Positions 11,318 to 30,161 of a stretch of 30,553 nucleotides of DNA are shown piece after piece. Below the pieces are notes generated by a model. That model was given only the letters and a program-made list of their open reading frames with translations. It had not been told where the DNA came from and ran no database searches. Made by a program: the position numbers and the translations under genes. Origin of the DNA: a virus (Duplodnaviria; Caudoviricetes); IMG/VR virus record IMGVR_UViG_3300020276_000004, positions 1-30,553 of that record. The stretch is one strand, 5' to 3'. Within the stretch, counting starts at the first letter, position 1; the number at the start of each line of letters is the position of its first letter.

Positions 11318-11331
11318 ATTTTTCTCCAAGT

Positions 11332-11359: not shown

Positions 11360-11370
11360 AGTTAGTATTA

Positions 11371-12480: not shown

Positions 12481-12548
12481 AGTTATCCTCCTTATTAGTT
12501 ATAGCAAGTTGATATTGATTTATTATTACAAAGTTCTGCAAGTTTCGT

Positions 12549-12592: not shown

Positions 12593-12610
12593 TTTAGTAT
12601 TTGTAACTTG

Positions 12611-12625
12611 TGTCTCATTGAGACA
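12611..12625. repeat. Palindrome TGTCTCAWTGAGACA, copy 1 (intergenic, 1 nt after scaffold stop)
   Basis: tgtctcattgagaca read directly. Confidence 0.95.
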
Positions 12626-12626
12626 G

Positions 12627-13391
12627 TTAGAGTACAGAAGATTTTCGTAACTTTTCAGCTACTTGACTTCTATACGCAGGGTCTTTTTCGTATCTTGGGT
12701 CAGACATCGCTGCAGTAATTTCTGCCAGACTTTGAAAGTTCCCTACTGTTGCATCGCCTACCTCACCTTTTACAAGGGTTGGTTCGACACCTACACCAGA
12801 ACGATAACGAGAATGGAGACCTTGAATTGCAAACACAGCATCTTGAGGGTTGCCAGTATCAACAGTTCTGTTAAATACTTCTTGCTCATCTGCTGTTAAG
12901 TTATTTGCAGCCCAATCCATCATATTTTTGTAGGATTCTTCTCCTCCTACTAAGTTATAGGCTTGTTGCCTAGTTTGGTCTACAAGAGCCATTTGTCCAT
13001 CTATAAATGAGTCTACCACATCTGATGGTATACCTGCATCTTCTAGTTGGTCATACTGCTCATCTGAGAGACCACCTTTTTCCCAAAAATCTTGAGACAT
13101 AGAACTATAGTCAATTCCGTGTGCTTCTAGTTCATCAATAGCTGCATCTTTGGTTTCCAAAGCTGCCTCATTGTCTTCTTCTCGACTTGAGTGAAACTGT
13201 TGCTCCAGTTCAGAATAAGCTTTTGCCATATCTTCTGGAGTGTTAAATTTTTCTGGTAGCCATTCTGGTCTATCTTGGACTTCTTCTGTAGCAGGTGGCT
13301 GTATTGCAGCTTCTGCTTTTTCTACCATTTCTTTTTGATAATTAGGGTCTTCTTGAGTTTCCCCTTGATATGTATTTAATTGTTCAGCCAT
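12627..13391 (-). CDS. Capsid scaffolding protein (gp9-like)
   Basis: Acidic; RPEWLPEKF...EDMAKAYSELE, VGGEE.Y..M..WA..NL, AMSDPRYEKDPAYR..V..KL. Confidence 0.95.
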   Translation of the reverse strand: MAEQLNTYQGETQEDPNYQKEMVEKAEAAIQPPATEEVQDRPEWLPEKFNTPEDMAKAYSELEQQFHSSREEDNEAALETKDAAIDELEAHGIDYSSMSQDFWEKGGLSDEQYDQLEDAGIPSDVVDSFIDGQMALVDQTRQQAYNLVGGEESYKNMMDWAANNLTADEQEVFNRTVDTGNPQDAVFAIQGLHSRYRSGVGVEPTLVKGEVGDATVGNFQSLAEITAAMSDPRYEKDPAYRSQVAEKLRKSSVL

Positions 13392-13396
13392 AATGT

Positions 13397-14989
13397 TTAT
13401 TCAACTCCTTGGTCAGTTTGTTGCTGTACTTGTTCCATTGCTTTCTCGGTTATTGGTAATGCACCTTTTTGTGCCATACCAGAAATAGTGTCTTCTAGTT
13501 TATTCATAGATTGTTGTTGCATCATTTGTTCTTGTTCTGCTTGTTTTTGCTCTGGTGTTTTTATTAAACCTCCAGTATCAATTCCTAACGATGCTCCTAG
13601 TCTATCTATATAATCATCAACATTAAGACTAGATGCGATAGTTTCTGGTCCTAATGGTTGTAGATATTGTAAAAATTGTGCTAATTTATTTAAATCTTGT
13701 CCTCTTCCTAAAGCCTCAAGCCCAGTTACAATCTGTGGTTTGACTGTATCTTTTGGCATTTTAGGCATCTTTTTCTTTTTCTCTAGCCTATCTAATAGTA
13801 ACTCAACTAGTGGATACTGAAACTCTTGACTAAGAATAGAATAAGTACCACCAAGTGCACTTTCTAATTCTTGTGCCATAAATCTTATTTCTTCTGCAGT
13901 CACTCGTTCAGCTTGTCTTTGTACAGAAGAATTAAGTAAGAAAGCAAAAGATAATCGTTCAGTAATTCTTAATCCAGTTTCTTGTGCTACTCTAAAATCA
14001 TTAAATTTGTTTACCTGCAAAGTTGTTACATCATTTGCATCACCTTGTACAATTGCTCCATTAGGTGCTTTTGCTAGTGTATTTTGTTTTGTTGTTCCGT
14101 TAGGTCTAACTAAGAATAATACTTTAGAAGAAGCAGCACTACCCTCTACAATGGCTCTAGTTAAAGCTTCAAGACTTCTTAAATCTCCTATATATTCTTC
14201 TACAAACCCACGACCATAATCTTCTCCATCAATTCTAGTAAATCGTAATGGTATAAATGGATTTTTATTTAAAGGATAAAAACCCTCTGAGTCTGGTACA
14301 ATCATACCTTTTACTTCTTGATGTATGTGAAACTTATCTTCTTTACGACAGACATAAGTATACAAATCAAGATTTTTGTTATTATAATCTGCTTCTCTTT
14401 CTTGAGTAATATTATCTGCTTGAGTAAGCATTAATCGTGCTTTTTCTGGTAACATAATTGGAGATACAGACTCTTTAGTTATAATCTCCATTACATTTCC
14501 CATAGTATCTCTTTTTACAACATATCTATCTAACCTAAATACTTTCATTGCTCCCTCAGTTTTTGGGAAAAACAATAAAGCATTACCTGCTACAATCAAT
14601 TGTTTTAATGCTTCATACACTGGAACACGAATTGCAGTTGATTCTATTTCCTGCATTGATGTTCTTTCTATTCTAGACAGAGCCTCTTCAATTGCTCCTC
14701 TTGCTTCTTTACCTGCTATTTTTTCTATATCAAAATCATCAATAATTAATCTAAAGAAAGGTGAGTTAGGTGGTAAAAGAGTAAGTAATAATTTACTAGC
14801 GAGGTTGTTTACTCCTCTTGCACCAACAGCTTGGTAAGGTGTTTTATAATTAGTATAACCAGTATGACCCTCTGGTGGCATAAGAGTTGGTACAGTCAAC
14901 TCTGCTGCATCTCTTGCTCTTTGCAGAAAAGAGTCTCTGGCAGCAGCAAGGTTTGCATATCTACTAGCTATAGATTTAATTTTCTCCAT
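13397..14989 (-). CDS. Portal / head-tail connector (gp8-like)
   Basis: PYQAVGARGVNNLASKL...LLPPNSPFFRL, GEDYGRG.VEEY.GDL.SL, RVTAEEIR, TGLEALGRGQD. Confidence 0.97.
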   Translation of the reverse strand: MEKIKSIASRYANLAAARDSFLQRARDAAELTVPTLMPPEGHTGYTNYKTPYQAVGARGVNNLASKLLLTLLPPNSPFFRLIIDDFDIEKIAGKEARGAIEEALSRIERTSMQEIESTAIRVPVYEALKQLIVAGNALLFFPKTEGAMKVFRLDRYVVKRDTMGNVMEIITKESVSPIMLPEKARLMLTQADNITQEREADYNNKNLDLYTYVCRKEDKFHIHQEVKGMIVPDSEGFYPLNKNPFIPLRFTRIDGEDYGRGFVEEYIGDLRSLEALTRAIVEGSAASSKVLFLVRPNGTTKQNTLAKAPNGAIVQGDANDVTTLQVNKFNDFRVAQETGLRITERLSFAFLLNSSVQRQAERVTAEEIRFMAQELESALGGTYSILSQEFQYPLVELLLDRLEKKKKMPKMPKDTVKPQIVTGLEALGRGQDLNKLAQFLQYLQPLGPETIASSLNVDDYIDRLGASLGIDTGGLIKTPEQKQAEQEQMMQQQSMNKLEDTISGMAQKGALPITEKAMEQVQQQTDQGVE

Positions 14990-14990
14990 A

Positions 14991-15104
14991 TTAAGATACC
15001 AATAATAGAAGTAAAAGAATAGCTATAATACCTAAATACATAGGCTGACGGCAACTCATACATTGCATCTTATTTTTTATTTTATTCCAATATTCTTCAA
15101 TCAT
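14991..15104 (-). CDS. 37-aa membrane peptide MIEEYWNKIKNKMQCMSCRQPMYLGIIAILLLLLLVS
   Basis: Not in the ORF track; fills the gap before the portal; GAGAGGG upstream; CxxC followed by a C-terminal hydrophobic helix. Confidence 0.65.
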   Translation of the reverse strand: MIEEYWNKIKNKMQCMSCRQPMYLGIIAILLLLLLVS

Positions 15105-15106
15105 AT

Positions 15107-15517
15107 TTACCCTCTCGGAATGTTAAGCCCACCCATAGTCAAAGAAACATTTTTAGATTTTGTAGAACCACCACTTGATTGTATACCTAGTCCTACTACT
15201 TTTCTAGGTTTAATCAAACGATTATCTGTTTTTTTCTTTTGTTGTGGATTAGCAGTTGTTATATTTATCCCAGTTTTTTTCTTTTTCTTAGTATCTTTAA
15301 ATTCATTAGGAACAACAGCACTAACGGCTCTAGTATTGTTCTTATTAATAATATTACCAGAAAAAGCCATATAAGGTATACCCATATCTTCTACATACTT
15401 TTTTTGTATTGTTGATGCAGATTTCATATCTTTTGCTCCTTGACTTAGGGCAAAAGCCATACCTTTTAAATTTGAAACTGGTATTGCTTGTGCAATATTT
15501 TTATATTTTTTAGCCAT
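15107..15517 (-). CDS. Basic virion-associated protein, gp7.3-like C-terminus
   Basis: Lys-rich; ends GGLNIPRG (T7 gp7.3 ends GGGINI); pre-portal position. Confidence 0.6.
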   Translation of the reverse strand: MAKKYKNIAQAIPVSNLKGMAFALSQGAKDMKSASTIQKKYVEDMGIPYMAFSGNIINKNNTRAVSAVVPNEFKDTKKKKKTGINITTANPQQKKKTDNRLIKPRKVVGLGIQSSGGSTKSKNVSLTMGGLNIPRG

Positions 15518-15522
15518 ATTGG

Positions 15523-15828
15523 TTAACTAGACTCTGGTATATTGATACCAGTTTTTCCAGTCCCTCCAACATTTGCTACATTGACATCAAGACCAACTCT
15601 GAATCTTCGTTTTCCCATTCTGTCTTTTCGTCTTTGTGCTGATGGACTTGGTACTGCATCATCGTCAGCATCTACTGCTTTTGCAGAACCTCTTCCCTCA
15701 ATAGCAGCTACTGGTGTAGAAGCTTGTCTTTTTGGTTTTGGGGCAGGTGCTCCACCACCTCCACCTCCTCCTCCACCACCACAATAGCATATAGTTTTGG
15801 AGAGGATTTTGTCTTCATAATCAAACAT
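15523..15828 (-). CDS. gp6.7/gp7.3-like small virion protein with poly-Gly tract
   Basis: CYC then 10 Gly; GKRRFRV; ends GINIPESS; RBS GAGGG. Confidence 0.65.
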   Translation of the reverse strand: MFDYEDKILSKTICYCGGGGGGGGGGAPAPKPKRQASTPVAAIEGRGSAKAVDADDDAVPSPSAQRRKDRMGKRRFRVGLDVNVANVGGTGKTGINIPESS

Positions 15829-15842
15829 TTATCCCTCGCTTG

Positions 15843-16091
15843 TTAAGTTGTTGTTTTAGTTTGTTTTTTTGGTATAGATAGACCAGTTCCCTCAGATAAA
15901 TTAGTTCCCAATGTATTTTGTTTTCTATCTACTCGGAACTGTTTTTTACCATCCCTTTTCTTTTTCATTGCTGCTGAATCAGTATCAATAGCTTCAAAAT
16001 CAACTTCCTTTGCAGTTACTTGTGGTACTGCTGCAGGAGGTGCAGGGGGTGGTGGGGGAGCAGGCATCTTTGGACTTTTCATAAAGCACAT
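15843..16091 (-). CDS. gp6.7-like small virion protein
   Basis: MCFMKSPKMP start (T7 gp6.7 starts MCFSPK), poly-Pro, GKKQFRV, GLSIP. Confidence 0.7.
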   Translation of the reverse strand: MCFMKSPKMPAPPPPPAPPAAVPQVTAKEVDFEAIDTDSAAMKKKRDGKKQFRVDRKQNTLGTNLSEGTGLSIPKKQTKTTT

Positions 16092-16097
16092 AGTAGT

Positions 16098-16280
16098 TTA
16101 CTCCTCATCATCTATGTTAGTTAGTTGTCTTACCTTTTCAATTACTGACTGCTGACCTTGTAAAAATCTTAGCTTTTCAACAGAAATATTCTCGTCTTTA
16201 GGTAGCTTATCTGGAAACTGCCTTTCTAAGTAATTCAACACATCGTTTGATATTAAAGGTTTATCCGTCAGTAATTTCAT
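16098..16280 (-). CDS. Conserved small protein at the start of the late block (gp6.5 positional equivalent)
   Basis: P.IS...L.YL...FPDKLP...GQQSVI; start reassigned to MKLL because the longer ORF runs through a terminator. Confidence 0.75.
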   Translation of the reverse strand: MKLLTDKPLISNDVLNYLERQFPDKLPKDENISVEKLRFLQGQQSVIEKVRQLTNIDDEE

Positions 16281-16285
16281 AGGTA

Positions 16286-16301
16286 TTTCCAATACTGTCC
16301 A
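16286..16301 (-). promoter_or_regulatory. Candidate phage RNAP late promoter TGGACAGTATTGGAAA
   Basis: Intergenic, right after the terminator and before the first late gene; resembles the GACACTATAG core of SP6-type promoters; repeated elsewhere in the window. Confidence 0.55.
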
Positions 16302-16339
16302 AAAAACAGAGAGGATTACTATTACATAACCCCCTCTGC
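16301..16339 (-). terminator. Intrinsic terminator after RNR
   Basis: Minus strand CAGAGGGGGTTA-8 nt-TAATCCTCTCTG-TTTTTT (12-bp stem with two G-U pairs). Confidence 0.85.
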
Positions 16340-16367
16340 CCACTATTTTGACAAGAAAGAAATATAA

Positions 16368-18248
16368 CTATAATTCACACGAATCACCAGTACAAGCTAA
16401 CTCTTGAGAACTAGTAGTCATATCCTTGACTTCCCTATACTTTGAGAAATCAATTATAGGCATATTATCAGATAACTTTTTAAATTGCAAGTTATTTATT
16501 TTTTCATATGGTGCTTGTACATATGAGTGAGAATCATCTTCTTTTGGTAAAAATGAAACACCACATATATCATCAAAATGCTCATATACATATGAACCTA
16601 CTTTCATCCATTCTTCTTCTCCTACATATACAGTAATTGATGGATTATGCTCGCACCAATTTTCTCTATAAGCTTTCCAAAGTTTAAGTTGGTCAATAGC
16701 ATTTAACTGCTCTTTCTTTTTACTATGTGTTGGACTTTGTATTGGAAAAGAGAATACATAGTTATGAGGGTTGTAAGAATCTTTTTCATACGGCACTCCC
16801 TCTTTTATCATCCACTCTGCAAGAGGGTCTTTAGTATCTGTTCTTACTCTTCTAATATAATAATCAGAATATCTTGGATGTATACCAGATGCACAATCAG
16901 CTAATTGAGATACTGTACCACTAGGTTTAACACAAGTTGTAGCAGTACTCTGATTCACTCCTAATATTTTTGCCCACTTTTTATTTGTGTCTATAACTAC
17001 TTGTTTTAATTGAGTTAATACATCTGTGTTAGTAACTTTATCGACATCAGCTAATAACTCATTATCTAAAATACCAGTCATAGAAACACCTAACAATCTT
17101 TCTTCTTCCATATTCTTTTTCCATATAGGTCTAAGATATCTTATGTCAGTAAGAGTAGATTGTATTGTACCAAGAAAAGATGCAACCTCTGCTTTTACTT
17201 TTAGAGTTTCTAAATCATCTTTTGGTTTAATAATTATTTCAGAAAGATTACAACATTGAGATGGTCGTAAAATTATTTCACCACAAGGGTTAGTTCCAAA
17301 ATAGTAATCGTGGTTTCTCCTGCCAGTTTTTTTTGATTGTTCTTTAGCTGCTTGTCTGTTAAACACTCCTCGTTCTCCAGATTTAGAACTATATAGAGCA
17401 GACCATTCTTTTATAAATCCACCCATTTCTGGTTTTCTGTTGTAAGCAATACTATTATTAGCATATGACCTATTAACATTCTCAGTCCACCAGTCTCCCA
17501 TTTTACAGTTACGCATCCTATCATCTACCATATCTGACAAACTAATCATTGCTGACCTACGGACACCACCTACTACAACTGCAGCAGCTACTGCACACAT
17601 AACATCGTGTGCTTCTATACTTGTTAGCTTTCTTCCTGCAGCCTTTTTAAATACATTGACTGTAAACCTAAATAAATTTTCTAGAGGCTGTGGACCACTT
17701 GCTCTACCACCAAATGTTTTAAGTCTTGCACCTGCAGGTCTTATCTTTGACAAATCCCATTTTGGAATCTCTCCTGCATACAATCTAGAAATTAGTTTTC
17801 GCAAACCTTTTGCCCAACCTAATTTACTATCTTCTACTACAAAGACTTCTTCTGTCTCATTGAGACACTCTGGTATATCTGGTAATTTTTCTACGCATTT
17901 TCTTTCAACAGAAAAACCAACACCAGTACCACACATAAGAACATACAGACATTCATCAAATGCTTTTGGGTCATCAACAGTCATATAAGAACAGTTATAA
18001 CCTGCAATATTATCTCTATCTAACGCAGGACCTGCTGACATAATGGCTCTCATTGATGGCACTACTTCAAGGTCTTTCATAAAGACAGAGTATTGTCTTA
18101 GTTGTTTTTCTGCCTTGGGTAACTTCTTAGCAAAGTAATCAACATATCTGTCAACACTTTCTTCCCAAGTTTCTCGCCTTTGTTCTTCTTCAATAAATCT
18201 AGCATAGCGAGATATTGCTATAAATTTCTGGTAAACATTCATCATCAT
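16368..18248 (-). CDS. nrdJ: Class II (adenosylcobalamin-dependent) ribonucleotide reductase, monomeric type
   Basis: PSMRA, YNCSY, LMCGTGVGFSVE, GGVRRSAMISL, TNPCGEI, TCVKPSGTVSQL, C-terminal ACTGDSCEL cysteine pair; no beta-subunit gene nearby. Confidence 0.9.
   Translation of the reverse strand: MMMNVYQKFIAISRYARFIEEEQRRETWEESVDRYVDYFAKKLPKAEKQLRQYSVFMKDLEVVPSMRAIMSAGPALDRDNIAGYNCSYMTVDDPKAFDECLYVLMCGTGVGFSVERKCVEKLPDIPECLNETEEVFVVEDSKLGWAKGLRKLISRLYAGEIPKWDLSKIRPAGARLKTFGGRASGPQPLENLFRFTVNVFKKAAGRKLTSIEAHDVMCAVAAAVVVGGVRRSAMISLSDMVDDRMRNCKMGDWWTENVNRSYANNSIAYNRKPEMGGFIKEWSALYSSKSGERGVFNRQAAKEQSKKTGRRNHDYYFGTNPCGEIILRPSQCCNLSEIIIKPKDDLETLKVKAEVASFLGTIQSTLTDIRYLRPIWKKNMEEERLLGVSMTGILDNELLADVDKVTNTDVLTQLKQVVIDTNKKWAKILGVNQSTATTCVKPSGTVSQLADCASGIHPRYSDYYIRRVRTDTKDPLAEWMIKEGVPYEKDSYNPHNYVFSFPIQSPTHSKKKEQLNAIDQLKLWKAYRENWCEHNPSITVYVGEEEWMKVGSYVYEHFDDICGVSFLPKEDDSHSYVQAPYEKINNLQFKKLSDNMPIIDFSKYREVKDMTTSSQELACTGDSCEL
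17853..17867. repeat. Palindrome copy 2 (inside RNR, encodes CLNET)
   Basis: tgtctcattgagaca read directly. Confidence 0.95.
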
Positions 18249-18499: not shown

Positions 18500-18500
18500 A

Positions 18501-19322
18501 TTATTCGCCTAAGTCAAATACATCTAGCATATTAGCATTCTTATGTATTTTCATATTATTAGGAGAAGAAAACTCAATAATATCTAACTGAGCCATAGGA
18601 GGACTCCATAGAGTATTCATTGTGTCTACAGTTAAAATATGTGCTAACCTTGCAGTCCTAATTGCATCTTCTTCTGACATCTTAGCTTTTTTGTAAGCAT
18701 TAGTAACTTGTGACCAGAACCAGTTTTCATCTGCTTCTGTTCCATCTTTTGGTGTCAAAAGTTTTTCAGCAGTAACTTCACCAATACCTCTAACTCCTTT
18801 ATAGTTATCAGCAGCATCACCAGTCAATATTTGTTTATAAAAGTTTTTCATAGCAACATTCTTTTCTATTGTTACTACTTCTCCATTTATAAGATGCTGA
18901 CCTGCGATTTGTCTAAGGTCTTTATCTGGTGACCATATAATATATTTATCTGGGTCTTTTGTGGCATAAATACCAAGCAAATCATCAGCCTCAAGATGTT
19001 CCATAGATTTTGCTCTATACTTCTTTTTTAGATGAGCACGAACTGCAGATAAACCCATAGGTTTTCTTTTATCAATTCTGTTTGCTTTATATTCAGTATC
19101 TATTTCTTTCCTAAATACTTTTTTACCAGAAAGAAAAACCATTTTCTTTTTACAACCAGACTGCTCCATAAGACTATCTATAATCTCATCAGCTTTCTGA
19201 TTAGTCTCAGACTCATAACTATGTAGAGTCCAGAGGTCATCATCCCATTGTATAGGATGTTCTGAGCCAGATGCAGCTTGATAAGCTACAATGTCTCCGT
19301 CAATCAGTAGTACTTTTTCCAT
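18501..19322 (-). CDS. 5'-3' exonuclease (gp6-like)
   Basis: LLIDGDI.AY, FRK.I...YKANR, LEADDL.GI, S.DKDL.QI, LTGDAADNYKGV.GIG. Confidence 0.93.
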   Translation of the reverse strand: MEKVLLIDGDIVAYQAASGSEHPIQWDDDLWTLHSYESETNQKADEIIDSLMEQSGCKKKMVFLSGKKVFRKEIDTEYKANRIDKRKPMGLSAVRAHLKKKYRAKSMEHLEADDLLGIYATKDPDKYIIWSPDKDLRQIAGQHLINGEVVTIEKNVAMKNFYKQILTGDAADNYKGVRGIGEVTAEKLLTPKDGTEADENWFWSQVTNAYKKAKMSEEDAIRTARLAHILTVDTMNTLWSPPMAQLDIIEFSSPNNMKIHKNANMLDVFDLGE

Positions 19323-19761
19323 TTTTTTCTCCAATCTTTGGTACTAGGTTTTTATAAAGTTTTAGTGTGTCTTTTGCAAATAGTTTTGATAAATTAATTA
19401 AATACATTTTAGATGCATAGTTATCACCACCATTTACTATTTTTTCGTAATCTAAATTCTTTATAACTTGTTTCAATACTTTTACATCAAACACAAGTGT
19501 ACAAAAAACTTGACTACCTACTGAAAGATTGTGAAACCAGTAGTCAGCTTTAGTAGCTGCAATGCCACTTGGTTTACCATAACTTTCAAATTCGATTGCT
19601 ATATTACCAGAACGAGTCCACACATCTCTTTCTGTTTTTACTTCAATCTTTTTATTCTCAAGCATATCGAGAATCTTATCTTCGTGTAGCTTTCCAAAAG
19701 CAAGGTCAATATCAAAGTCCTTGCGAGTCTCTTTAGTGGGTCTCAGCCCAGTTCTTTCCAA
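19300..19761 (-). CDS. Conserved phage protein with PD-(D/E)XK-like nuclease signature
   Basis: FDIDL..G..HE...IEVKTERD.W..SGNIAIE.ESYGKPSGI..T.ADYW; probable TTG start at 19761 after GGAGAG. Confidence 0.7.
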   Translation of the reverse strand: MERTGLRPTKETRKDFDIDLAFGKLHEDKILDMLENKKIEVKTERDVWTRSGNIAIEFESYGKPSGIAATKADYWFHNLSVGSQVFCTLVFDVKVLKQVIKNLDYEKIVNGGDNYASKMYLINLSKLFAKDTLKLYKNLVPKIGEKNGKSTTD

Positions 19762-21505
19762 TTTTGAACTCTCCGTCAAGGGGTACTCTGAGGTTGTAAT
19801 ACTCTCCTGCTTTTTTGATTGCTTCGACACAGATTTTACCAATTTCTTCTCCTTTATGTTTTTTAACTAATACTTGCACTTCATCGTGTACATAGGCTAC
19901 TTGTTTATAACAACAACCATCTATATAGCCTCTTTCTTTTAACAAATCGTGAAATATAACAATCCATCGTTTTGTTAAAATTGCTCCACAACTTTGGAGA
20001 AGAGTATTTAGTGCTGCGTGTGGGTGCATAACTGGTATTCTCCTTTTATCAATACCAAAAATATACCCATTCTCTGCAGTTTTTTGAACAGATTCTGTTA
20101 GGTTTTTTAATGCAGGTATCTTTTTAAAGAAATCTGCTTTTATCCTGCTACCCTCTTGGCTACCTTTGCCAATAATCTTACCAAGTTTTTCGTTCCCTGC
20201 CCCATAAATGAGAGCATAGATAAAAGTTTTGGCATTATCACGAGTTGGTAACCCTGCTGCATTTTGGTTAATTGTATGGATGTCATCGTTAACAACCTGC
20301 TTACCATATCGACCATCATCCCAGTTAGCCATATAGTGGGATAAGCAACGCAACTCCAAACTACTAGCATCGCACCCCATAAGGCTGTAGTCATCATTAG
20401 CATAAAACAAACTACGACAATCCACCCCATATTCAGCTTTGACACTAGGTATTTGAGCCATATTTGGGTTCTTGTGTGTGCATCTCGAAGTGTATGTTCC
20501 CATTGGGTTAACATATCCATTTATCTTTCCTTTCTTTACTAGTTTCAACCAAGCTTGTTTACCCTCTGCAAGTTGTCCTAGCCTTTTTTGTATTGTTAAA
20601 TATTTAGTTAGTACTTTTGCCTCTGGATAATCCAAAGAACTAAGAACTCGTTCATCTACTTTAGGTAATCCAGTCTCTGTAAAAACTTTTGGCTTCCAGT
20701 CATACTTTTCTTGTAGCATTCTGGCTATATGTTCTCTACTATTTGGATTAAACTCAGTAACAGTTCTCTTTATAATAGGTACACCTTTTTCATATCCATA
20801 TTTTTTACTATTAACTTTTGGTACAAACTCTTCTTCGTGTACCCAAGCAGTTATGTCTTTCTTCAAGTCTGTCTCAATGAGACACCTCTCGTCATTCAAT
20901 TTAGAAAAAAGCTTTTGTGCTGCCTCTTCATCAAATGGAAAGCCGTGTTCTTGTTGTGCAAACAAAATTTCTTGAATTCTATGTTCCAACTTAACTGCAT
21001 CTTGAGAGTATTTTATGTTCTCAAATTTTTTATACAGACAAGTATTTAGCCAAACATCTTGCTGACAATATTGTAACATATCTTCAGAAAAAACAGAGAA
21101 GTCACTTTCTTCTGCAAACTTCCCTTTGCTTACACCTATTCTATACCCCCAAGCTTTTAGACTGTGTGAGCCTATAAGTTGTGGTGGTAAATTACCTTTT
21201 CTAAATAGTTTAAAATCTCTATTTTTTCTATCTGGAAAATATAATCTACCCAATACAAGGGTATCAACCACTATTGCTTTTGGTTCTACATCATATAATT
21301 TTTTTATGACTGGTAAGTCAAAACATATAATATTATGACCAATTAGAACTTCTGCTTTCTGTAGAAATTCTATACCATCTCCAATAGTGTCCTTTTTAAA
21401 AATGTACTCTTTATCATTGTCGCTAACATCTCTGGCAACGATACAATGTATCTTAGTAACACTCTCTAAAAGTCCGTCAGTTTCTATATCAAATACTAGT
21501 TTCAT
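19733..21505 (-). CDS. DNA polymerase family A (gp5-like) with 3'-5' exonuclease
   Basis: FDIETDG, GHNI..FD, motif A DASSLELR, motif B RDNAKTFIYALIYG, motif C VHDE. Confidence 0.97.
   Translation of the reverse strand: MKLVFDIETDGLLESVTKIHCIVARDVSDNDKEYIFKKDTIGDGIEFLQKAEVLIGHNIICFDLPVIKKLYDVEPKAIVVDTLVLGRLYFPDRKNRDFKLFRKGNLPPQLIGSHSLKAWGYRIGVSKGKFAEESDFSVFSEDMLQYCQQDVWLNTCLYKKFENIKYSQDAVKLEHRIQEILFAQQEHGFPFDEEAAQKLFSKLNDERCLIETDLKKDITAWVHEEEFVPKVNSKKYGYEKGVPIIKRTVTEFNPNSREHIARMLQEKYDWKPKVFTETGLPKVDERVLSSLDYPEAKVLTKYLTIQKRLGQLAEGKQAWLKLVKKGKINGYVNPMGTYTSRCTHKNPNMAQIPSVKAEYGVDCRSLFYANDDYSLMGCDASSLELRCLSHYMANWDDGRYGKQVVNDDIHTINQNAAGLPTRDNAKTFIYALIYGAGNEKLGKIIGKGSQEGSRIKADFFKKIPALKNLTESVQKTAENGYIFGIDKRRIPVMHPHAALNTLLQSCGAILTKRWIVIFHDLLKERGYIDGCCYKQVAYVHDEVQVLVKKHKGEEIGKICVEAIKKAGEYYNLRVPLDGEFKIGKNWAETH
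20870..20884. repeat. Palindrome copy 3 (inside DNA polymerase, encodes CLIET)
   Basis: tgtctcaatgagaca read directly. Confidence 0.95.
21380..21392 (-). promoter_or_regulatory. Candidate phage RNAP promoter variant GGACACTATTGGA
   Basis: One mismatch to the 16288-16300 copy; same orientation. Confidence 0.4.
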
Positions 21506-23907: not shown

Positions 23908-24475
23908 TTCCTCCAGTAGAGTTAGTATGTGAATATCCATCTTCTTTCTTGAAACCTAAAGACTCAGCAGACTCATCGTTGTTGTCGTAAGGTACAAGAT
24001 TCAATATTTGAACCCCAACAAGTTTGAGTGATACTGAAGCCCCCATTGTAGGAGTGTAGTACGGCATTGGGTTATATGCCACTTTGACATCAGACCCATT
24101 ACCAATCAATAGTTTTTCGACTATTGGTTTATTATTAGCATCAAACATAACGACCTTTTTTTCAACTTGACCATTTTTTGTTTGAATAATTTTTTTCTGT
24201 TTGAACTTAAAGTCAAGTTCTCCAGTTTGTTTGCCATCTTGGACAACCTCAACATAAGGTACAGTACCTCTTTTAATTTTTTTGTTGGGATTGTCTGCAA
24301 CAGCTTTAGCTACAGCTTGCTCGACTGCTTTATCAATATTAGCTTGTAGCTTTGTAGCATTTTCACCTTTGAGCCTCAAGCGAATAGAATATTCACCATC
24401 AGCTACAAATTTGGTATCTGCTACTGCTATTTTTGCCCATTGGGATTTACCCATAGGTGTTACTTGATATGCCAT
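23852..24475 (-). CDS. Single-stranded DNA-binding protein (gp2.5-like)
   Basis: TP.G...WA, IGNGS.VKV, VSLKL..VQ..L, acidic tail ending in F; RBS AAGGAGA before MAYQV. Confidence 0.9.
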   Translation of the reverse strand: MAYQVTPMGKSQWAKIAVADTKFVADGEYSIRLRLKGENATKLQANIDKAVEQAVAKAVADNPNKKIKRGTVPYVEVVQDGKQTGELDFKFKQKKIIQTKNGQVEKKVVMFDANNKPIVEKLLIGNGSDVKVAYNPMPYYTPTMGASVSLKLVGVQILNLVPYDNNDESAESLGFKKEDGYSHTNSTGGNDEEEDISFEEPKEEADF

Positions 24476-24476
24476 A

Positions 24477-24638
24477 TTATTTTCTCCTTTCATCAATAAT
24501 TTTATCAAGTTCGCTTACATCTACACCAAACTCTAAGAGTTTAGCGATTATATCAAGAGGTACTGGTATGTATCTCTCTCTACAATTCTCATATAACAAA
24601 ATTAAAAAGTCTTTGTTCACTTTATCTAAATCTAACAT
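24477..24638 (-). CDS. 53-aa hypothetical protein MLDLDKVNKDFLILLYENCRERYIPVPLDIIAKLLEFGVDVSELDKIIDERRK
   Basis: Not in the ORF track; open frame filling the RNAP-SSB gap, stop 1 nt from the SSB start; start codon uncertain. Confidence 0.6.
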   Translation of the reverse strand: MLDLDKVNKDFLILLYENCRERYIPVPLDIIAKLLEFGVDVSELDKIIDERRK

Positions 24639-24657
24639 AGTCAATTCTCATAGTCAA
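24629..24657 (-). promoter_or_regulatory. Putative host sigma70 promoter for the replication block
   Basis: TTGACT-17 nt-TAGATT; tandem TTGACTATG repeats; palindrome copy 5 lies 15 nt upstream of the -35. Confidence 0.5.
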
Positions 24658-24672
24658 CCCCCTCAGAACAAC

Positions 24673-24687
24673 TGTCTCATTGAGACA
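24673..24687. repeat. Palindrome copy 5 (intergenic, abutting the RNAP stop codon)
   Basis: tgtctcattgagaca read directly. Confidence 0.95.
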
Positions 24688-27150
24688 CTAGCTAAAAAAG
24701 TAATTAGATTGTTTTACTACTTCCAAATCTAAATCACCTTTTTCTGGTTGAGGAGGTATCTCATCTGTTACCTCTTTCGCAAAAGTTTCAAAATCAGTTA
24801 AGACATCATTATTCTGATACATTTCAGAAAAACTTTGTCTGGTTAATTTATGTAGTACTGGTACATAACTTGCGTGTACTCCATAAGAATCGTGCACCAT
24901 TGCAAAATCTTTTATTCCTACTTCTACACACTTGTTAATTGTTATTGTCATAGCTGCAGAATCCATAGAATGAATAAAATTTGGAGATGCTCCATTTATA
25001 CTTCTTCTTCTGTCAGCTTTTGAAAAGTCTTGTTCTCTTACTTGTGGTTTTATCAATGTGTTATCTATGTATGTTGTTATTCTTCTTGACTTAGTCTCTG
25101 GATACATTTGTTGTACTAAAAATCCAGTAGGTGTCATCCACATAACTGGTAAATTTAATTTAGATATATTTGAAGATACTTGTTGCAACCAATCCATAAC
25201 TGTTCTAGCAGAAACAATAACTTTTCCAATACACTCCCACACTATCTGTGCCAGATAAAAAGTTGGTTGCCATAAATCATTTCCCCAAGGATGTGTAATT
25301 CCTACATCCATTTTATCAACTATATAATCTTCAATATATTGTCTAGTTGAAAAAAGTTTACCACCATATGGAACTACCATAACTGGTCTTTTTGTAGTTT
25401 TTCTATTTATTCCAAACTCTAACCATTGCCTAGCCATCTCATCGTGAGACTTTCTAGTTTCTAATACTTTTATAACTTCATTTGCAACATCTTGATAAAT
25501 ATCATTGGGTGTTTCTGACGGCACAAGATTTGTACTTATTGCTCCTACTCTGTCTCTAGCTATTGCTGAAAGATGTTGTAGTCCATTATTTGAACCATCA
25601 AGTGAAACTGGAATTCTAGAATTTATATCTCCTAGTTTTAAATTCTTTGACAACTTACTTTGTATTTCTTTCCATTCAAAACAAAAAGCTAAAAACTGCC
25701 AAGGGCTGTCTGCATCTTGCCACCACTTATACTCATAGGGATTTGTAGCAGTCTGGAGAATTTTATCTGTGTTCTCTTCTACCCATCCATTTCTATTATC
25801 AAAAGAAACCTTGTCTTCACCAAAACAATTTGCTCCGTGAACAGCTAACCAATACATACCCTCTCTGGTCAACGGAGCAGTCTCAGCAAAACATAGTAAT
25901 CCTTTTGAATAATCTGGACCTTGTGGTGTTAGGAATGATGAAGCAACATACTTTCTACCTCTAAAATCATTTTGATACACATAATAAAAACAATCAAATT
26001 CTTTAAATTTATTAGCCATAGAGATTGTACGGATTACTTGTAATCTTTTTGATGCCATTCTGGCATTTGCTTGATGTACTTTTGATGCTGCGTGTTTCCA
26101 TTCTTTCAGTTGTAAAAGTTCAGCTTCATTCATATCAGCTTTCTTTTTGTTAGGAAAAGGAGATGGTGGAAGTGGTGCATCATCTTTAGACGGAAGTCCA
26201 GACCAACTGTCTCCAGACTCCCATACTGTTTTCATAACTTCTAATACATCTTTGTTTACTGCCCATTTTGTTTTTTGTAAGGCATTTATAGCATTGTACT
26301 CCTCATCCATTTTATGGTAGTCCATCTCAGTCAAATACTTTCTGTTAGATGTCTTAATCATAGGTAAAGGTTTTATATGCCTTGTATGATATCCTCCAGA
26401 GTATGGACTAGTCCAGTCTCTAGGCTCAATAACACAAGGCATATATTTAGGAGACAATACTTCACCACGAAGATTGACGGAATTTATCCAATTGAGTGTT
26501 GTTTCAGTTGGAGCAATGTGTAACACTTTTTTATTTTTTCCGTAAGTATGTGTTACTTGTTTTATAATACCAGTTTTTGAAACAATGAGGTCAAGCACCT
26601 TGCAACCCAAGTGAAGTTTTTCTTGTATAGACCACACCTCATAATCAATCAAAGCTTTTTTATTCATAGTGTGTATGATTGCATACCTACGATAATATCT
26701 ATTTGATGTTCTGGTATTTACATCTTTAACTAGTCTCTTAAACCATTTTGGTTCATTCTTTTCAAACAAAGCAAACTTGCATTGGTCTTCCAAGGCATTC
26801 GCAATGCTCATCGCACACTTAGTCAATGTCTGATTTTTAGAAAGACTATCGACCACTTGTTTCAACCCAATATAGGCAGTCTCTTCTGGGTCTACTAACG
26901 AGAGTAGGTGAGCAGAGGAACTTAATCTACCTGCCTTGCCTTTAAATGATTCTGCAAGGAATTCATCTATGCCATTGGCTACAGAATCGACACTCTTTTT
27001 CATTGCTAGAATTCCATAAAGAGTTGTAGACTCGTTTCCCTTTTCGATAGCCTTTCTAACTTCAGAACGATAATACTCAACACCTCGTGTTTGCATATCT
27101 GACTCAAGTTCTCTTTGTATGCTATATAGTTTATTATTATATTTCATCAT
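24688..27150 (-). CDS. Single-subunit DNA-directed RNA polymerase (gp1-like)
   Basis: PC.IEP.DW...GGY, DFRGR.Y, motif A DGSNNGLQH, motif B R...KRPVM..PYG, PNFIHSMD, motif C HDSYG, C-terminal YFFS. Confidence 0.98.
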   Translation of the reverse strand: MMKYNNKLYSIQRELESDMQTRGVEYYRSEVRKAIEKGNESTTLYGILAMKKSVDSVANGIDEFLAESFKGKAGRLSSSAHLLSLVDPEETAYIGLKQVVDSLSKNQTLTKCAMSIANALEDQCKFALFEKNEPKWFKRLVKDVNTRTSNRYYRRYAIIHTMNKKALIDYEVWSIQEKLHLGCKVLDLIVSKTGIIKQVTHTYGKNKKVLHIAPTETTLNWINSVNLRGEVLSPKYMPCVIEPRDWTSPYSGGYHTRHIKPLPMIKTSNRKYLTEMDYHKMDEEYNAINALQKTKWAVNKDVLEVMKTVWESGDSWSGLPSKDDAPLPPSPFPNKKKADMNEAELLQLKEWKHAASKVHQANARMASKRLQVIRTISMANKFKEFDCFYYVYQNDFRGRKYVASSFLTPQGPDYSKGLLCFAETAPLTREGMYWLAVHGANCFGEDKVSFDNRNGWVEENTDKILQTATNPYEYKWWQDADSPWQFLAFCFEWKEIQSKLSKNLKLGDINSRIPVSLDGSNNGLQHLSAIARDRVGAISTNLVPSETPNDIYQDVANEVIKVLETRKSHDEMARQWLEFGINRKTTKRPVMVVPYGGKLFSTRQYIEDYIVDKMDVGITHPWGNDLWQPTFYLAQIVWECIGKVIVSARTVMDWLQQVSSNISKLNLPVMWMTPTGFLVQQMYPETKSRRITTYIDNTLIKPQVREQDFSKADRRRSINGASPNFIHSMDSAAMTITINKCVEVGIKDFAMVHDSYGVHASYVPVLHKLTRQSFSEMYQNNDVLTDFETFAKEVTDEIPPQPEKGDLDLEVVKQSNYFFS

Positions 27151-27295
27151 TATCTCTTTTAGGTAATCGCACTACAACAAAGGAATTACAGTTAGGACAA
27201 CTCAGATGAGTCTCCATACAATATTCTTCACATTCACTCCCTATATTATAATCATTATTCCAGATTAGTTCTGTGTTACAATGCCAACATTTCAT
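27137..27295 (-). CDS. 52-aa zinc-ribbon protein MKCWHCNTELIWNNDYNIGSECEEYCMETHLSCPNCNSFVVVRLPKRDNDEI
   Basis: Not in the ORF track; two CxxC pairs; AGGA RBS; overlaps the RNAP start. Confidence 0.8.
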   Translation of the reverse strand: MKCWHCNTELIWNNDYNIGSECEEYCMETHLSCPNCNSFVVVRLPKRDNDEI

Positions 27296-27330
27296 ACGGA
27301 ATTCCTATCACATTTCCTATCACTTTGCAA

Positions 27331-27361
27331 CAACTACTTGTTTCGCATCACAAAGTAGTTG
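27331..27361. other. 9-bp inverted repeat (CAACTACTT-13 nt-AAGTAGTTG) next to a tandem GTGATAGGAA repeat (27302-27323)
   Basis: Read directly; no U-tract, function unknown. Confidence 0.45.
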
Positions 27362-27552
27362 CGTATGTGTGTGCCGACCATAAAAATGCACAATATTAGC
27401 ATTGGGTAGTGGTTTCCTTGTATTGTCCAAGTTATCCAAAACACTTGACAAAATAATCCAAAGAGTGGTGCATAACGACTTCCATTGCCATACAACCAAA
27501 CACTAATTACTGCTAATATTGCACAAGTTATTTCTAATATTAATATGTTAAT
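27334..27552 (-). CDS. About 72-aa three-helix membrane protein (PnuC/SemiSWEET half-like), no canonical start
   Basis: Open frame INILILEITCAILAVISVWLYGNGSRYAPLFGLFCQVFWITWTIQGNHYPMLILCIFMVGTHIRNYFVMRNK; AAGGGAGA followed by ATT at RBS spacing. Confidence 0.65.
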   Translation of the reverse strand: MNILILEITCAILAVISVWLYGNGSRYAPLFGLFCQVFWITWTIQGNHYPMLILCIFMVGTHIRNYFVMRNK

Positions 27553-27782
27553 TCTGTATCTCCCTTTGAAAGACCATAAAAAGATTTTTTATGTTCCCAC
27601 AGAGGCTCATCTATACACATATATCCCCACATTTTTTCTGGGTACTTTTCTTTTAATTTTTTTGTGAGTGGTTCAAGTGTCTCAATGAGACAGTCTGGTA
27701 CTTTTGCAATAAATTTTTCTGTGTACGGAGCATCTTTGTATCCGTGTAATATAATTATGAGAACCATTGCAGTTTTTATCAT
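27540..27782 (-). CDS. Hypothetical protein with hydrophobic N-terminus
   Basis: 80 aa; ATGA overlap with the GNAT stop. Confidence 0.7.
   Translation of the reverse strand: MIKTAMVLIIILHGYKDAPYTEKFIAKVPDCLIETLEPLTKKLKEKYPEKMWGYMCIDEPLWEHKKSFYGLSKGDTELTY
27678..27692. repeat. Palindrome copy 6 (encodes CLIET)
   Basis: tgtctcaatgagaca read directly. Confidence 0.95.
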
Positions 27783-28225
27783 TTTAACCCTTTCTTGTAA
27801 ATTGTTCCTTGTTTTGTGTAGCCAAGTCTTTCCATAACATCATCATACTGAGAAGTTGTTGCTCCTCCATATGTTACAGAATAATTTACTTCTCTACAAT
27901 TATTTTTTATTGCCCACTTTTCAAAATCTTTTAACAGTTTAAAACCTGCTAGTTGACTTTTACCATCAGTAAACAAGAGTTCTTCTTGAGCAAAAATATC
28001 ATCACCCCACAGATAATTAGTTATGTATCCAAGTAAGAAAGCAACTGCCTTTTCTTCTCTGCAATAAACACGAAAGTAGCTGTGGTCAGAATCAATATAA
28101 CCTTTAGCCCAAACACGAATATTGTCATCAGAATAATGGCTATTCTTATAAATACTTGTGGAATGCATCTTACGAGCCAAGGGAAGAAGATATTCAATAT
28201 CACATTTTGTCGCATCACGAATCAT
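27779..28225 (-). CDS. GNAT-family acetyltransferase-like protein
   Basis: MIRDAT..DI start, G.KLLK.FEKWA...C.E, ERLGY...G..Y; start reassigned to MIRD. Confidence 0.75.
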   Translation of the reverse strand: MIRDATKCDIEYLLPLARKMHSTSIYKNSHYSDDNIRVWAKGYIDSDHSYFRVYCREEKAVAFLLGYITNYLWGDDIFAQEELLFTDGKSQLAGFKLLKDFEKWAIKNNCREVNYSVTYGGATTSQYDDVMERLGYTKQGTIYKKGLK

Positions 28226-28370
28226 TGGACTTACCTTTATTTTTGACATTTTGTAAGTCTGCTATAGTGTACCCATATTTATTCATTAACATTTTTGTAG
28301 CATAACTAGAGTCTGTTATACAATTCAAAAGTAATGTTTCTTCAAACTTTTTAAAAGTATCATTCATCAT
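28215..28370 (-). CDS. 51-aa hypothetical protein MMNDTFKKFEETLLLNCITDSSYATKMLMNKYGYTIADLQNVKNKGKSNDS
   Basis: Not in the ORF track; strong RBS AAGGAGG; overlaps both neighbours. Confidence 0.7.
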   Translation of the reverse strand: MMNDTFKKFEETLLLNCITDSSYATKMLMNKYGYTIADLQNVKNKGKSNDS

Positions 28371-28497
28371 CTTCCTCCTTATCTAAATCAAATCTAATCC
28401 ATACTGATGCACCTGCTTCATCACTAAAGTGTTTTACTTCTTCCCAAGGCACACTAGCATTATTGTCTAACCATTTATTAAATTTTTTATAAGTCAT
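28360..28497 (-). CDS. 45-aa acidic hypothetical protein MTYKKFNKWLDNNASVPWEEVKHFSDEAGASVWIRFDLDKEEDDE
   Basis: Not in the ORF track; RBS GGAGGT. Confidence 0.7.
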   Translation of the reverse strand: MTYKKFNKWLDNNASVPWEEVKHFSDEAGASVWIRFDLDKEEDDE

Positions 28498-28711
28498 TTT
28501 TACCTCCAATATAATATCTCATACTCCAAGCTAGGGATTCAATTTGCTCCCATATAAATTTAGGGTCTGCATATTCAAAATAATGCCAAGCATTGGCTTC
28601 AAGGAATTCGTCAACCTTTTCTTCTTCCCATTCATCATAGTCTGATGGCAAGTTTGTACCTAAGTAATGACCACTTGCCCATATGATATCTTCTTTAGTT
28701 ACTTTAGTCAT
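28487..28711 (-). CDS. Acidic, aromatic-rich early protein
   Basis: 74 aa; RBS AGGAGGT; ATGA overlap. Confidence 0.75.
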   Translation of the reverse strand: MTKVTKEDIIWASGHYLGTNLPSDYDEWEEEKVDEFLEANAWHYFEYADPKFIWEQIESLAWSMRYYIGGKNDL

Positions 28712-29046
28712 CGCTTACCTCCTACTCCTAATTTTTTTAACAGTCTTTGTTCTGTCTCCTCATCACTAAGATGCCAACTAGCAGTCATATTAGTTGTCCA
28801 ATAACCATCCTCTGTTGGGTCGCACTCATACACAACACAAACAATCTTATAGTCTGCCCAGTAAACACAAAGGTCAAACATTCGTTTGTCAAACTGAATG
28901 CCATACCAAAAGCTATCGCTTTCGTCTTCAGGTGTTTCATTATCTACTTTAAAACTTGGCAATGCTTCTTCCTTGTAAAACTGTATCAGTTGTTTCTTTT
29001 CTAGTTCTGAGAGTTGTAGTTCTTTGTCATACATATTAGTCATCAC
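28708..29046 (-). CDS. Acidic early hypothetical protein
   Basis: 112 aa; RBS AAGGA; packed in the early operon. Confidence 0.75.
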   Translation of the reverse strand: MMTNMYDKELQLSELEKKQLIQFYKEEALPSFKVDNETPEDESDSFWYGIQFDKRMFDLCVYWADYKIVCVVYECDPTEDGYWTTNMTASWHLSDEETEQRLLKKLGVGGKR

Positions 29047-29197
29047 TATTCCTTTCTAATTCTTCAAGATGTTCAACAAGCATATCCAAACCACTGCATA
29101 CACCATTATGTTCTGCTTTGGTATGACTATCGTTAACCCATTCATCATCAGATTTAATATCTATTACTATATTTTTTATTCGTTCTAGTGTAAACAT
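29036..29197 (-). CDS. 53-aa hypothetical protein MFTLERIKNIVIDIKSDDEWVNDSHTKAEHNGVCSGLDMLVEHLEELERNSDD
   Basis: Not in the ORF track; fills the gap; AAGGA upstream. Confidence 0.7.
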   Translation of the reverse strand: MFTLERIKNIVIDIKSDDEWVNDSHTKAEHNGVCSGLDMLVEHLEELERNSDD

Positions 29198-29212
29198 ATT
29201 TTTCTTGTCCTT

Positions 29213-29428
29213 TTAGTTAATTAGTTTATTATAATCTAGTGTTGCTTCTTTTACTTCGTCAAGCAACTGTCTCAATGAGACACTCATATCAGATTCTAAA
29301 ACTTCATCGTCAACAGCAGTAGCAAGGTCAGACAGAAGACCAACAAAATATGCATTGTCCTCTGCCAAACCTTGTACTATATTTCTGAGAATCGTAATCT
29401 CAGTCTTATGAGTTAAATTGTTCTTCAA
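29213..29428 (-). CDS. Helical hypothetical protein (probable TTG start)
   Basis: GAGGT before the TTG at 29428 reduces overlap with the upstream gene. Confidence 0.6.
   Translation of the reverse strand: MKNNLTHKTEITILRNIVQGLAEDNAYFVGLLSDLATAVDDEVLESDMSVSLRQLLDEVKEATLDYNKLIN
29268..29282. repeat. Palindrome copy 7 (read in a different frame, VSLRQ)
   Basis: tgtctcaatgagaca read directly. Confidence 0.95.
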
Positions 29429-29732
29429 TCCAACCTCTAAGTTTCTTTTGTGATGCAGTATGCTGAACAAGATGCCATAAGTCTTCATTGTCCTTGTCTC
29501 TTACTGCAACAATGTCGTGAGAATAAACACTACCTGCTTCTTTGTAGATACCCTCTACCATTGCAAGTCTAGTTTGTCCTCGTAGATTGTCCATCATAGT
29601 TGCATACCACCCATTAGATAGTAATACTCTATGACCTTTTTTTATTTCATTTGTCTTCACAAATCCTCCACTTAATTCAAGACTATGAGCATTTGCCAAA
29701 GCCCAATTTATACTTTGTTGAGCATTATTCAT
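29406..29732 (-). CDS. Early hypothetical protein (beta-rich)
   Basis: 108 aa; RBS AGGAGGT; ATGA overlap with the HTH gene. Confidence 0.75.
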   Translation of the reverse strand: MNNAQQSINWALANAHSLELSGGFVKTNEIKKGHRVLLSNGWYATMMDNLRGQTRLAMVEGIYKEAGSVYSHDIVAVRDKDNEDLWHLVQHTASQKKLRGWIEEQFNS

Positions 29733-30085
29733 TTTGACCTCCTAAATGCAATAGTTGTGTTATATATAGAATCCTCAATGTACCTGCCATCTCTCCAGTC
29801 TTTCAACCAGTTGTAAAATGTAGGTAGTGAGATGAAGTAGTATTTAGCTAACTCTACAACCTTAACTCCATTGTCTTGATTAACTAGAAAGTATTCTACA
29901 ATTCTCTTCTGCTCAGACTTTGAGTATCTAGAGTAATGCATATACTTACCAGTTCTCTTTGGATGTTGAGGTTTTGGTAACTTGTGAGCACCGATGGTTA
30001 GCCTTTTTGGTGTCTCAATGAGACGAGGGGAATCCTTAAACATATCTAACTGTTTTGGATTGTTTGTAGTAGGTTCTAGCAACAT
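29729..30085 (-). CDS. Helix-turn-helix DNA-binding protein
   Basis: RYSKSEQKRIV...KVVELAKYYFISLPTFYNWLK fits a homeodomain-like / transposase-type HTH; RBS AAAGGAGA; first gene behind a consensus promoter. Confidence 0.75.
   Translation of the reverse strand: MLLEPTTNNPKQLDMFKDSPRLIETPKRLTIGAHKLPKPQHPKRTGKYMHYSRYSKSEQKRIVEYFLVNQDNGVKVVELAKYYFISLPTFYNWLKDWRDGRYIEDSIYNTTIAFRRSK
30011..30025. repeat. Palindrome copy 8, one-mismatch variant, inside the HTH gene (RLIET)
   Basis: tgtctcaatgagacg read directly. Confidence 0.85.
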
Positions 30086-30126: not shown

Positions 30127-30154
30127 ATTATACCACAACCAATGAGGGAGTCAA
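30127..30154 (-). promoter_or_regulatory. Strong host sigma70 early promoter
   Basis: TTGACT-16 nt-TATAAT with extended -10 (TGG-TATAAT); intergenic. Confidence 0.85.
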
Positions 30155-30161
30155 CTAGCAC

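Follow-up and report, generated by a model that had tools for sequence, protein, structure and literature searches.

Dispersed palindromes in marine T7-like phages are rewritten in place between close relatives and are candidate operators of a first-gene product

How does one 15-bp palindrome come to be written into unrelated genes of a small phage genome, and what would read it there? We addressed this question for the dyad TGTCTCAWTGAGACA in IMG/VR virus record IMGVR_UViG_3300020276_000004, a stretch of 30,553 nt (hereafter the window) with the gene content of a marine T7-like phage without an integrase. The array formed by this palindrome is real and strongly selected. We give a probability of roughly 0.47 to the reading that its members are genome-wide DNA sites under selection, rewritten together between close relatives, and likely operators of a phage-encoded dimeric protein. 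This protein, most likely the first early gene's product (gp1), would act as a repressor or roadblock of transcription and confer immunity to phages that share the spelling.

An exact scan found TGTCTCAWTGAGACA at positions 12611, 17853, 20870, 22983, 24673, 27678, and 29268; in 100 dinucleotide shuffles the mean was 0.00 copies, and none of the 100 reached seven. A variant with one mismatch stands at 30011. Matches with three mismatches (6012, 18581, and 22666) occur at chance level (shuffle mean, 1.62), and positions 1 to 12600 hold no match with two or fewer mismatches. This confirms the initial annotation, made from the letters alone, which had listed seven perfect copies and a variant and had placed six sites in coding DNA (CLNET or CLIET, with VSLRQ in another frame) and two at stop codons. 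It had also called the center base orientation neutral and, indeed, this base is T in four sites and A in four on the coding strand, leaving the dyad without orientation. The eight sites, for which no strand is given, are the following.

12611..12625: 15-bp dyad that follows the scaffold stop codon by 1 nt and precedes the capsid start by 130 nt
17853..17867: 15-bp dyad in the class II ribonucleotide reductase (RNR), read as CLNET (amino acid [aa] 128); old spelling kept in strains L148 and L150
20870..20884: 15-bp dyad in the DNA polymerase, read as CLIET (aa 208); rewritten in L148 and L150
22983..22997: 15-bp dyad in the primase/helicase open reading frame (ORF), read as CLNET (aa 52), upstream of an internal Shine-Dalgarno (SD)-like stretch; a 16-bp dyad in L148 and L150
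24673..24687: 15-bp dyad, 0 nt after the stop codon of the phage RNA polymerase (RNAP) and 28 nt before a 55-aa ORF; lost from L148 and L150 through a 17-nt deletion
27678..27692: 15-bp dyad in an 80-aa early ORF, read as CLIET; rewritten in L148 and L150
29268..29282: 15-bp dyad in a 91-aa early ORF, in the other frame (VSLRQ); rewritten in L148 and L150
30011..30025: one-mismatch dyad in the N terminus of a helix-turn-helix (HTH) ORF, read as RLIET; a sigma70-like -10 box lies 102 nt upstream, and L148 and L150 have the site rewritten

At the aligned positions in relatives, CL(N/I)ET was found in 0 of 5 RNRs (a sixth is gapped), 0 of 8 DNA polymerases, and 0 of 8 primases. Since these homologous proteins carry other residues there, it is the DNA word that has been placed in the genes, which supports the earlier proposal that selection acts on the DNA dyad and not on the protein. 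The same sites recur at orthologous positions in separate assemblies that are 90 to 98% identical to the window, with the center base flipping between strains. We therefore reject an assembly or adapter artifact, which had been judged unlikely from the outset. In one window-type strain (L149, position 984), the center of the site in the 80-aa ORF is degenerate, the TGTCTC arms being kept and inner bases changed.

Relatives were collected by RNAP-based retrieval. One near-identical record, G001, is 97.7% identical to the window across 20.5 kb and reaches about 3.2 kb beyond its early end; a second near-identical record, G005, covers the right end. G001 carries 16 copies of the dyad, ten of them within the first 4.5 kb. 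G001 and G005 together hold 17 sites. The ten within the first 4.5 kb are separated by gaps of 127 to 737 nt, the next gaps measure 1.7 to 5.2 kb, and the following 20.6 kb have no site. This is in good agreement with the claim that site density rises toward the early end. Several G001 sites lie between sigma70-like promoters and ribosome-binding sites, and early sites are found 29, 35, 77, and 102 nt downstream of sigma70-like -10 boxes. One such promoter, recognized by consensus match only, lies in the window:

30127..30155, minus strand: sigma70-like early promoter TTGACT-17-TATAAT, upstream of the site at 30011

Across eleven records, an SD-like motif and an ATG follow within 40 nt downstream of 43 of 103 sites, versus 7 to 8% of random positions in three of these genomes. 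The remaining sites are mid-gene or adjoin terminator-like hairpins.

The array is a trait of the clade, in which relatives carry at least eight other dyads. We compared 35 loci, each with 100 triplet shuffles; many of them are near-duplicates, and the counts are of loci, not of independent events. Five to 16 copies of one dyad, matched by at most one shuffle, were found in 17 loci, and four copies were found in another four (L115, L122, G014, and L117). The other 14 had three or fewer, among them L078 with two copies of a 16-bp form. Nine spellings were significant in the clade; those beyond the window's own are given here with the records that carry them.

RTTAACT-S-AGTTAAY: G006, G009, L074, L153
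RTTAACC-RY-GGTTAAY: G007, G008, L151, L168
CGTTACA-N-TGTAACG: G011, G012, L081
TTAACA-N-TGTTAA: L158
TTTACY-NNN-RGTAAA: L129
TTTAACATGTTAAA: L138
GTTTA-N6-TAAAC: L122
TGTCGCA-N1-2-TGCGACA: L148, L150

Around its first gene, L115 (3798-5276) has three or four AT-rich dyads, and the product of that gene has a VAE repeat and falls outside the gp1 profile; this set is possibly a minimal or an unrelated version of the array. In the array-less relative L117, a unit containing CGTGATCACG stands four times in tandem near the genome end (767-834).

Two strains allowed us to follow a change of spelling site by site. L150 and L148 are 94 to 95% identical to G001 over 13.7 kb and 10.7 kb, respectively, and carry the dyad TGTCGCA-N1-2-TGCGACA, which has no match in the window or in G001. 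Among the 16 G001 sites, eight align in L150 with a symmetric change in both arms. Of the others, the one that follows RNAP has been deleted, the one in RNR stands in the old spelling, and one aligns only downstream; five have no good orthologous alignment, one of these lying beyond the locus. The rewriting led to amino acid changes in the DNA polymerase and other ORFs, and some of the changes are non-synonymous. In total, there are 12 sites of the new spelling in L150 and 8 in L148, with a single old-spelling site in each. The 15-bp and 16-bp versions of the new dyad are mixed (5 and 7, respectively, in L150, 3093-16257; 5 and 3 in L148, 213-11460), which suggests a binder that tolerates two spacings; the 15- and 16-bp classes found elsewhere may have arisen from one another by such a route. 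Such a concerted change in place fits what one would predict if a changed binding protein exerted the selection, and it counts against an artifact, a relic, or the mimicry of a fixed host motif. When 27 of 64 database parts were searched with the L150 spelling, at least 119 loci were obtained, and the 80 of these that were listed were single matches.

Which protein, then, would read these sites? The array suits a dimeric protein, as had been proposed, and we consider it very likely that the binder is a phage-encoded DNA-binding dimer. Given such a dimer, gp1 is probably the protein in question and, were gp1 the binder, its function would quite likely be repression. The gene for gp1 (G001 238-774, 178 aa) comes first among the early genes and lies just outside the window. 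In G001, sites flank this gene upstream of its promoter, before its ribosome-binding site, and after its stop codon, and the first gene is flanked in the same way in L150, G006, G008, L129, and L138. gp1 was present in 10 of the 10 array loci that cover its position and was not detected in any of the eight array-less loci that extend from terminase to RNAP. Furthermore, gp1 homologues led us to eight new loci, each of which has two or three dyads immediately upstream.

The gp1 first genes form one remote family. When each subfamily was left out in turn (22 sequences), the left-out members were recovered as the top non-member match, with E values of 4e-8 for G001, 6e-4 for L150, about 1e-11 for G006/G008, 5e-6 for L129, and 5e-5 for L138, the profiles having used columns aligned with the left-out rows present. 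In a smaller run with 13 sequences, G006/G008, L081, and L115 were missed, and the L081 group is linked by profile-profile comparison only (97%). The family is small, with 18 clusters among 1.84 billion representatives, and the longest contigs among the clusters looked up are about 42 kb.

We then compared G001 with L150. tblastn matches at 81 to 99% identity were obtained for 32 of 39 query ORFs, and gp1 is among the seven without a match; its positional homologue, at 3223-3927 of L150, is 26 to 32% identical, versus 98% for RNAP. Where the motif differs, gp1 is always at most 37% identical, but gp1 identities of 31 to 37% also occur at the same motif. The helix that is most conserved within gp1 subfamilies spans about residues 81 to 97 of G001 gp1 and differs between half-site classes. 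It reads LSTYR in each of the seven full-length RTTAAC-type rows, whereas the CGTTAC types have LKxYxSYL and the TGTC types LRxxRSAI. This class-specific helix is a candidate recognition helix, in a pattern that also follows descent.

Two AlphaFold models of gp1 are helical, with mean pLDDT values of 77 and 82. Foldseek returned no match at an E of 0.001 or below in the PDB (first model) or in a viral library (both models), and the best VIA Z scores (6.6 and 5.1) were non-specific. From these models, the fold searches point neither to a new fold for gp1 nor to a known one. In the ESM Atlas, both gp1 types match the same unnamed viral clusters at 0.92. The nearest named families are DUF3102 (0.80 and 0.85) and PF25746 (0.78, a level often reached by chance), which are leads only. 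Sequence searches gave no match among annotated phages and a best E of 0.08 against PDB sequences.

We thus hypothesize the following course of events. Host RNA polymerase would make gp1 first, and the gp1 dimer would bind the dyads that flank its own gene, exerting negative feedback on gp1 synthesis. It would then repress or roadblock transcription of the early operons by host RNA polymerase, and the sparser sites farther on would extend this damping to the region of RNAP, replication, and capsid genes. In integrase-bearing relatives, gp1 binding would keep the prophage silent. In the integrase-less window type, it may serve the timing of early shut-off, the exclusion of superinfecting kin, or a non-integrated quiet state. 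A phage that swapped gp1 and rewrote its sites would escape a resident repressor, and the spelling switches may be such immunity escapes.

Several observations weigh against this hypothesis. It is not obvious why a phage without an integrase would need a repressor. gp1 belongs to no Pfam or PHROG family and has no recognized DNA-binding fold, and its net charge is mixed. The gp1 profile (22 sequences) did not recover the first gene of L115, which lies amid three or four AT-rich dyads. Moreover, gp1 diverges at constant half-sites, to 37% identity between L081 and L298 (flanks, 93%) and to 31% between G006 and L302. Because gp1 also diverges without a change of motif, its replacement in L150 falls short of proof. 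The array-less loci belong to about three lineages, and descent is followed by the gp1 subfamily as well as by the motif; the co-occurrence of gp1 and array therefore amounts to few independent events. Finally, the comparison with L150 covers the genes outside the portal-to-tail-fiber region, and a virion protein from that region may have changed along with the motif.

Other readings of the same sites have to be weighed against operators of gp1. It is unlikely, in our view, that the sites bind a phage protein, be it gp1 or an ejected virion protein, to a non-regulatory end. In that reading the bound sites would protect or tether the DNA as it enters the cell, for instance by blocking translocating nucleases of the host, and would be densest on the end that goes in first. 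The steep gradient, with gaps of 0.1 to 0.7 kb early, then up to 5 kb, and then no site over 20 kb, would suit such a role, as would the six mid-gene sites of the window and the maintenance of the array across several integrase-less lineages. However, about 42% of sites stand directly before ribosome-binding sites and after promoters, and there is no clear reason for protection to rewrite all sites between strains. Nor do internal virion proteins track the motif: those of G006 and G009, which share a spelling, are 33 to 55% identical and no closer than those of G008 and G009.

We consider it somewhat less probable still that the array is a phage repressor system whose binder is another phage protein, gp1 being just a fast-evolving target of regulation. 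This would agree with the hypervariability of gp1 at a constant motif and with the lack of a DNA-binding fold among our search results for gp1, the comparison of G001 with L150 being one of genes outside the structural region of L150. Nevertheless, among the genes examined we found no other that combines presence in every array genome with a change from G001 to L150. Neither the MarR-like protein and the integrase nor the HTH ORF, the 55-aa ORF, or the GP88-like ORF does so. The initial annotation had pointed to the HTH protein of the window as a possible binder:

29729..30085, minus strand: HTH ORF, 118 aa, considered and rejected as binder

We rejected it on two grounds. It is 86% identical to its L150 counterpart, with the changes mostly around the site and the HTH part nearly unchanged in the switched strains, and it is absent from the complete array-bearing genome G006. 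The 55-aa ORF after RNAP was rejected as well, as it is 95% identical in L150 and there is no room for it in G012. The GP88-like ORF is present in the array-less G013 and G014, and one of its clusters spans different spellings. The MarR-like protein and the integrase have a distribution independent of the array.

Mimicry of a host chromosomal motif, by which the sites would recruit or titrate a host protein of the ParB, MatP, or SlmA kind with one spelling per host, is very unlikely. In size and symmetry the dyads resemble such host sites, and like the sites of the parS/ParB and KorB/OB systems they form a dyad of similar size, the parS half-site being one base off. Unlike in those systems, the spelling is unstable and the gradient follows the early operons. 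Both spelling and spacer change between strains that are 94 to 96% identical, and the window motif occurs as one copy in 1 of 301 bacterial genomes, taken from the class of the only cellular bin with a relative, which may not be the class of the true host. No ParA, ParB, or KorB was found among 39 window ORFs searched against PHROGs, 22 ORFs searched against Pfam, and 15 ORFs of the genome ends and relatives searched against Pfam. When the tRNA-Leu of the relatives was compared with 19 genomes, the sole match was the phage contig itself in one cellular bin, and the host was not found. From the list of functions suggested earlier, repression or roadblocking is retained as the best reading. parS/ParB or a host factor is not, given a motif that is rewritten between 94%-identical strains and that is found once in those 301 genomes.

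Highly improbable, too, is an action as RNA hairpins for processing or for translation control before early genes, comparable to the RNase III sites of T7, even though many sites lie 10 to 31 nt before start codons and a 6-bp stem with a 3-nt loop could form. Among the arm pairs there is no coding-strand excess of G-U (191 Watson-Crick, 49 A-C, 28 G-U, and 43 other) and no Rfam match was obtained, which makes hairpins unlikely; in addition, the center base is neutral, several classes have spacers of 0 to 2 nt, and there are sites upstream of the first promoter.

The two weakest readings can be dismissed briefly. That the dyads are promoters of the phage RNAP has next to nothing to recommend it: some positions (after RNAP, before capsid, and before internal virion genes) are those of T7 promoters, but the specificity loop is identical despite different dyads (G007/G008 and G009/L074; L078 and G011/G012), the dyad has no orientation, and a separate asymmetric T7-like motif found on one strand, TGGACAYTATMG, is conserved throughout the clade and also occurs in the window. 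This bears out the earlier opinion that the dyad is not a phage promoter. TGGACAYTATMG itself is likely the phage RNAP promoter. Some dyads of G008 and G012 abut this motif. The features concerned are the following.

24688..27150, minus strand: T7-like RNA polymerase, whose specificity loop does not track the palindrome
7202-7222, minus strand, with weaker copies at 1877-1897, 16287-16307, 21379-21399, and 28259-28279: one-strand motif TGGACAYTATMG, conserved while the dyads change

The chance is just as slight that the dyads belong to a MarR-like lysogeny switch, as in temperate T7-like phages, and that they are its operators, persisting as relics once MarR had been lost. Such a switch, with repression by MarR at local sites around the RNAP promoter, has been proposed for LUZ100 (PMC10134795), and the word palindrome is absent from the main text of that paper. 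LUZ100 belongs to the same phage group, and many array-bearing relatives carry the MarR-like and integrase module. However, the array described here is genome-wide and distributed independently of MarR: arrays without MarR or integrase occur in the window type, L148/L150, L158, L129, and L122, whereas G013 and L161 have the MarR-like gene and the integrase and no array. Since the switch of spelling occurred between two MarR-less strains, the sites are not decaying relics.

Dispersed operators are known from other phages. In the Streptomyces phage phiC31, a siphovirus, dispersed conserved inverted repeats are bound by the repressor c, some of them for autoregulation, and these sites are intergenic. 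gp1 had no sequence-level match to the phiC31 repressor family, PF25746, in the Pfam scan. In cluster A mycobacteriophages (L5 and TipsytheTRex), stoperators are asymmetric 13-mers that point in the direction of transcription, and the repressor that binds them is monomeric and has an N-terminal HTH and a Stoperator domain (PMC9283540, PMC6550527). As in cluster A, our sites are present in many copies genome-wide, at promoters and between genes, the motif differs among related phages, and a role in repression and immunity is proposed here; integrase-free members, with parABS, exist in cluster A too. Unlike those stoperators, ours are perfect dyads of 14 to 16 bp that are often placed inside genes, and the T7-like phage that carries them encodes an RNAP of its own. 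In the Pfam, PHROG, and PDB searches, the candidate gp1 showed no similarity to the cluster A repressor. Cluster O mycobacteriophages have 17-bp dyad repeats (34 copies in Corndog) with the same spelling in five genomes, and no binder is proposed (PMC4351075). Both arrays have invariant 7-bp arms and an orientation-neutral A/T center, lie in and between genes of phages without an integrase, and would have a dimeric binder. The window dyad differs in its 15 bp with a 1-bp center, as opposed to the 3-bp spacer of cluster O, and in its unrelated arms; in addition, spellings here switch between strains and a candidate gene co-occurs. The array most resembles the cluster O dyads in form and would work like the cluster A stoperators. 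A literature search, mostly of open papers without their supplements, brought up no account of such an array in T7-like phages.

The phage around the array has a familiar layout. Among the window ORFs scanned, the main genes are all on the minus strand and in T7 order: RNAP, single-stranded DNA-binding protein, endonuclease, amidase, primase/helicase, DNA polymerase, exonuclease, and class II RNR, followed by the virion genes for portal, scaffold, capsid, tail, and internal virion proteins. The RNAP is 39% identical to its best annotated match (LUZ100). Many relatives carry a MarR-like gene, a tyrosine integrase, and a whole tRNA-Leu before RNAP (13886-15355 in G006, against the region 27150-28249 of the window), unlike the window type, which lacks all three. 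The MarR-like gene and the integrase are absent before RNAP in the window, G001, G005, L070, L148, and L150, and loss of the module with its tRNA-Leu is seen in several lineages. An acetyltransferase-like early gene (phrog_1249) lies at 27779-28249 on the minus strand, and its C-terminal part differs in L148/L150. A 180-aa ORF (phrog_13596; 19300-19842, minus strand) has a nuclease-like KIEVKTER motif; it is found in array-bearing relatives and absent from G013/G014, yet it is 96% identical in L150. Three small, very basic ORFs follow the capsid gene (10302-11255, minus strand), one of them a DUF6321 protein and two highly conserved in relatives, and these possibly encode DNA-condensing proteins. 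In the distant relatives L121 (534-1278) and L164 (1907-3207), small ORFs before the terminase look by eye like IscA/IscU-type iron-sulfur assembly proteins and small heat-shock proteins.

For the biology of this group, the array points to a player other than the MarR-like protein of the current proposal in holding back the T7-like lytic program, both in phages that integrate and in those without an integrase. It is conceivable, though we put it forward with some doubt, that marine T7-like phages have an immunity system of their own: the first-injected gene would encode a site-specific dimer of an undescribed all-helical family, a graded array would silence the genome without an integrase, and specificity would change by a swap of the gene followed by site-by-site rewriting, here caught in mid-course. 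The two 94%-identical strains with different sites and different gp1 constitute a matched natural pair. If gp1 does read the dyads, its family would be a new one of DNA-binding proteins, with a set of possibly orthogonal protein-operator pairs, and the switch would offer a direct view of an operator array changing its spelling, even inside essential genes.

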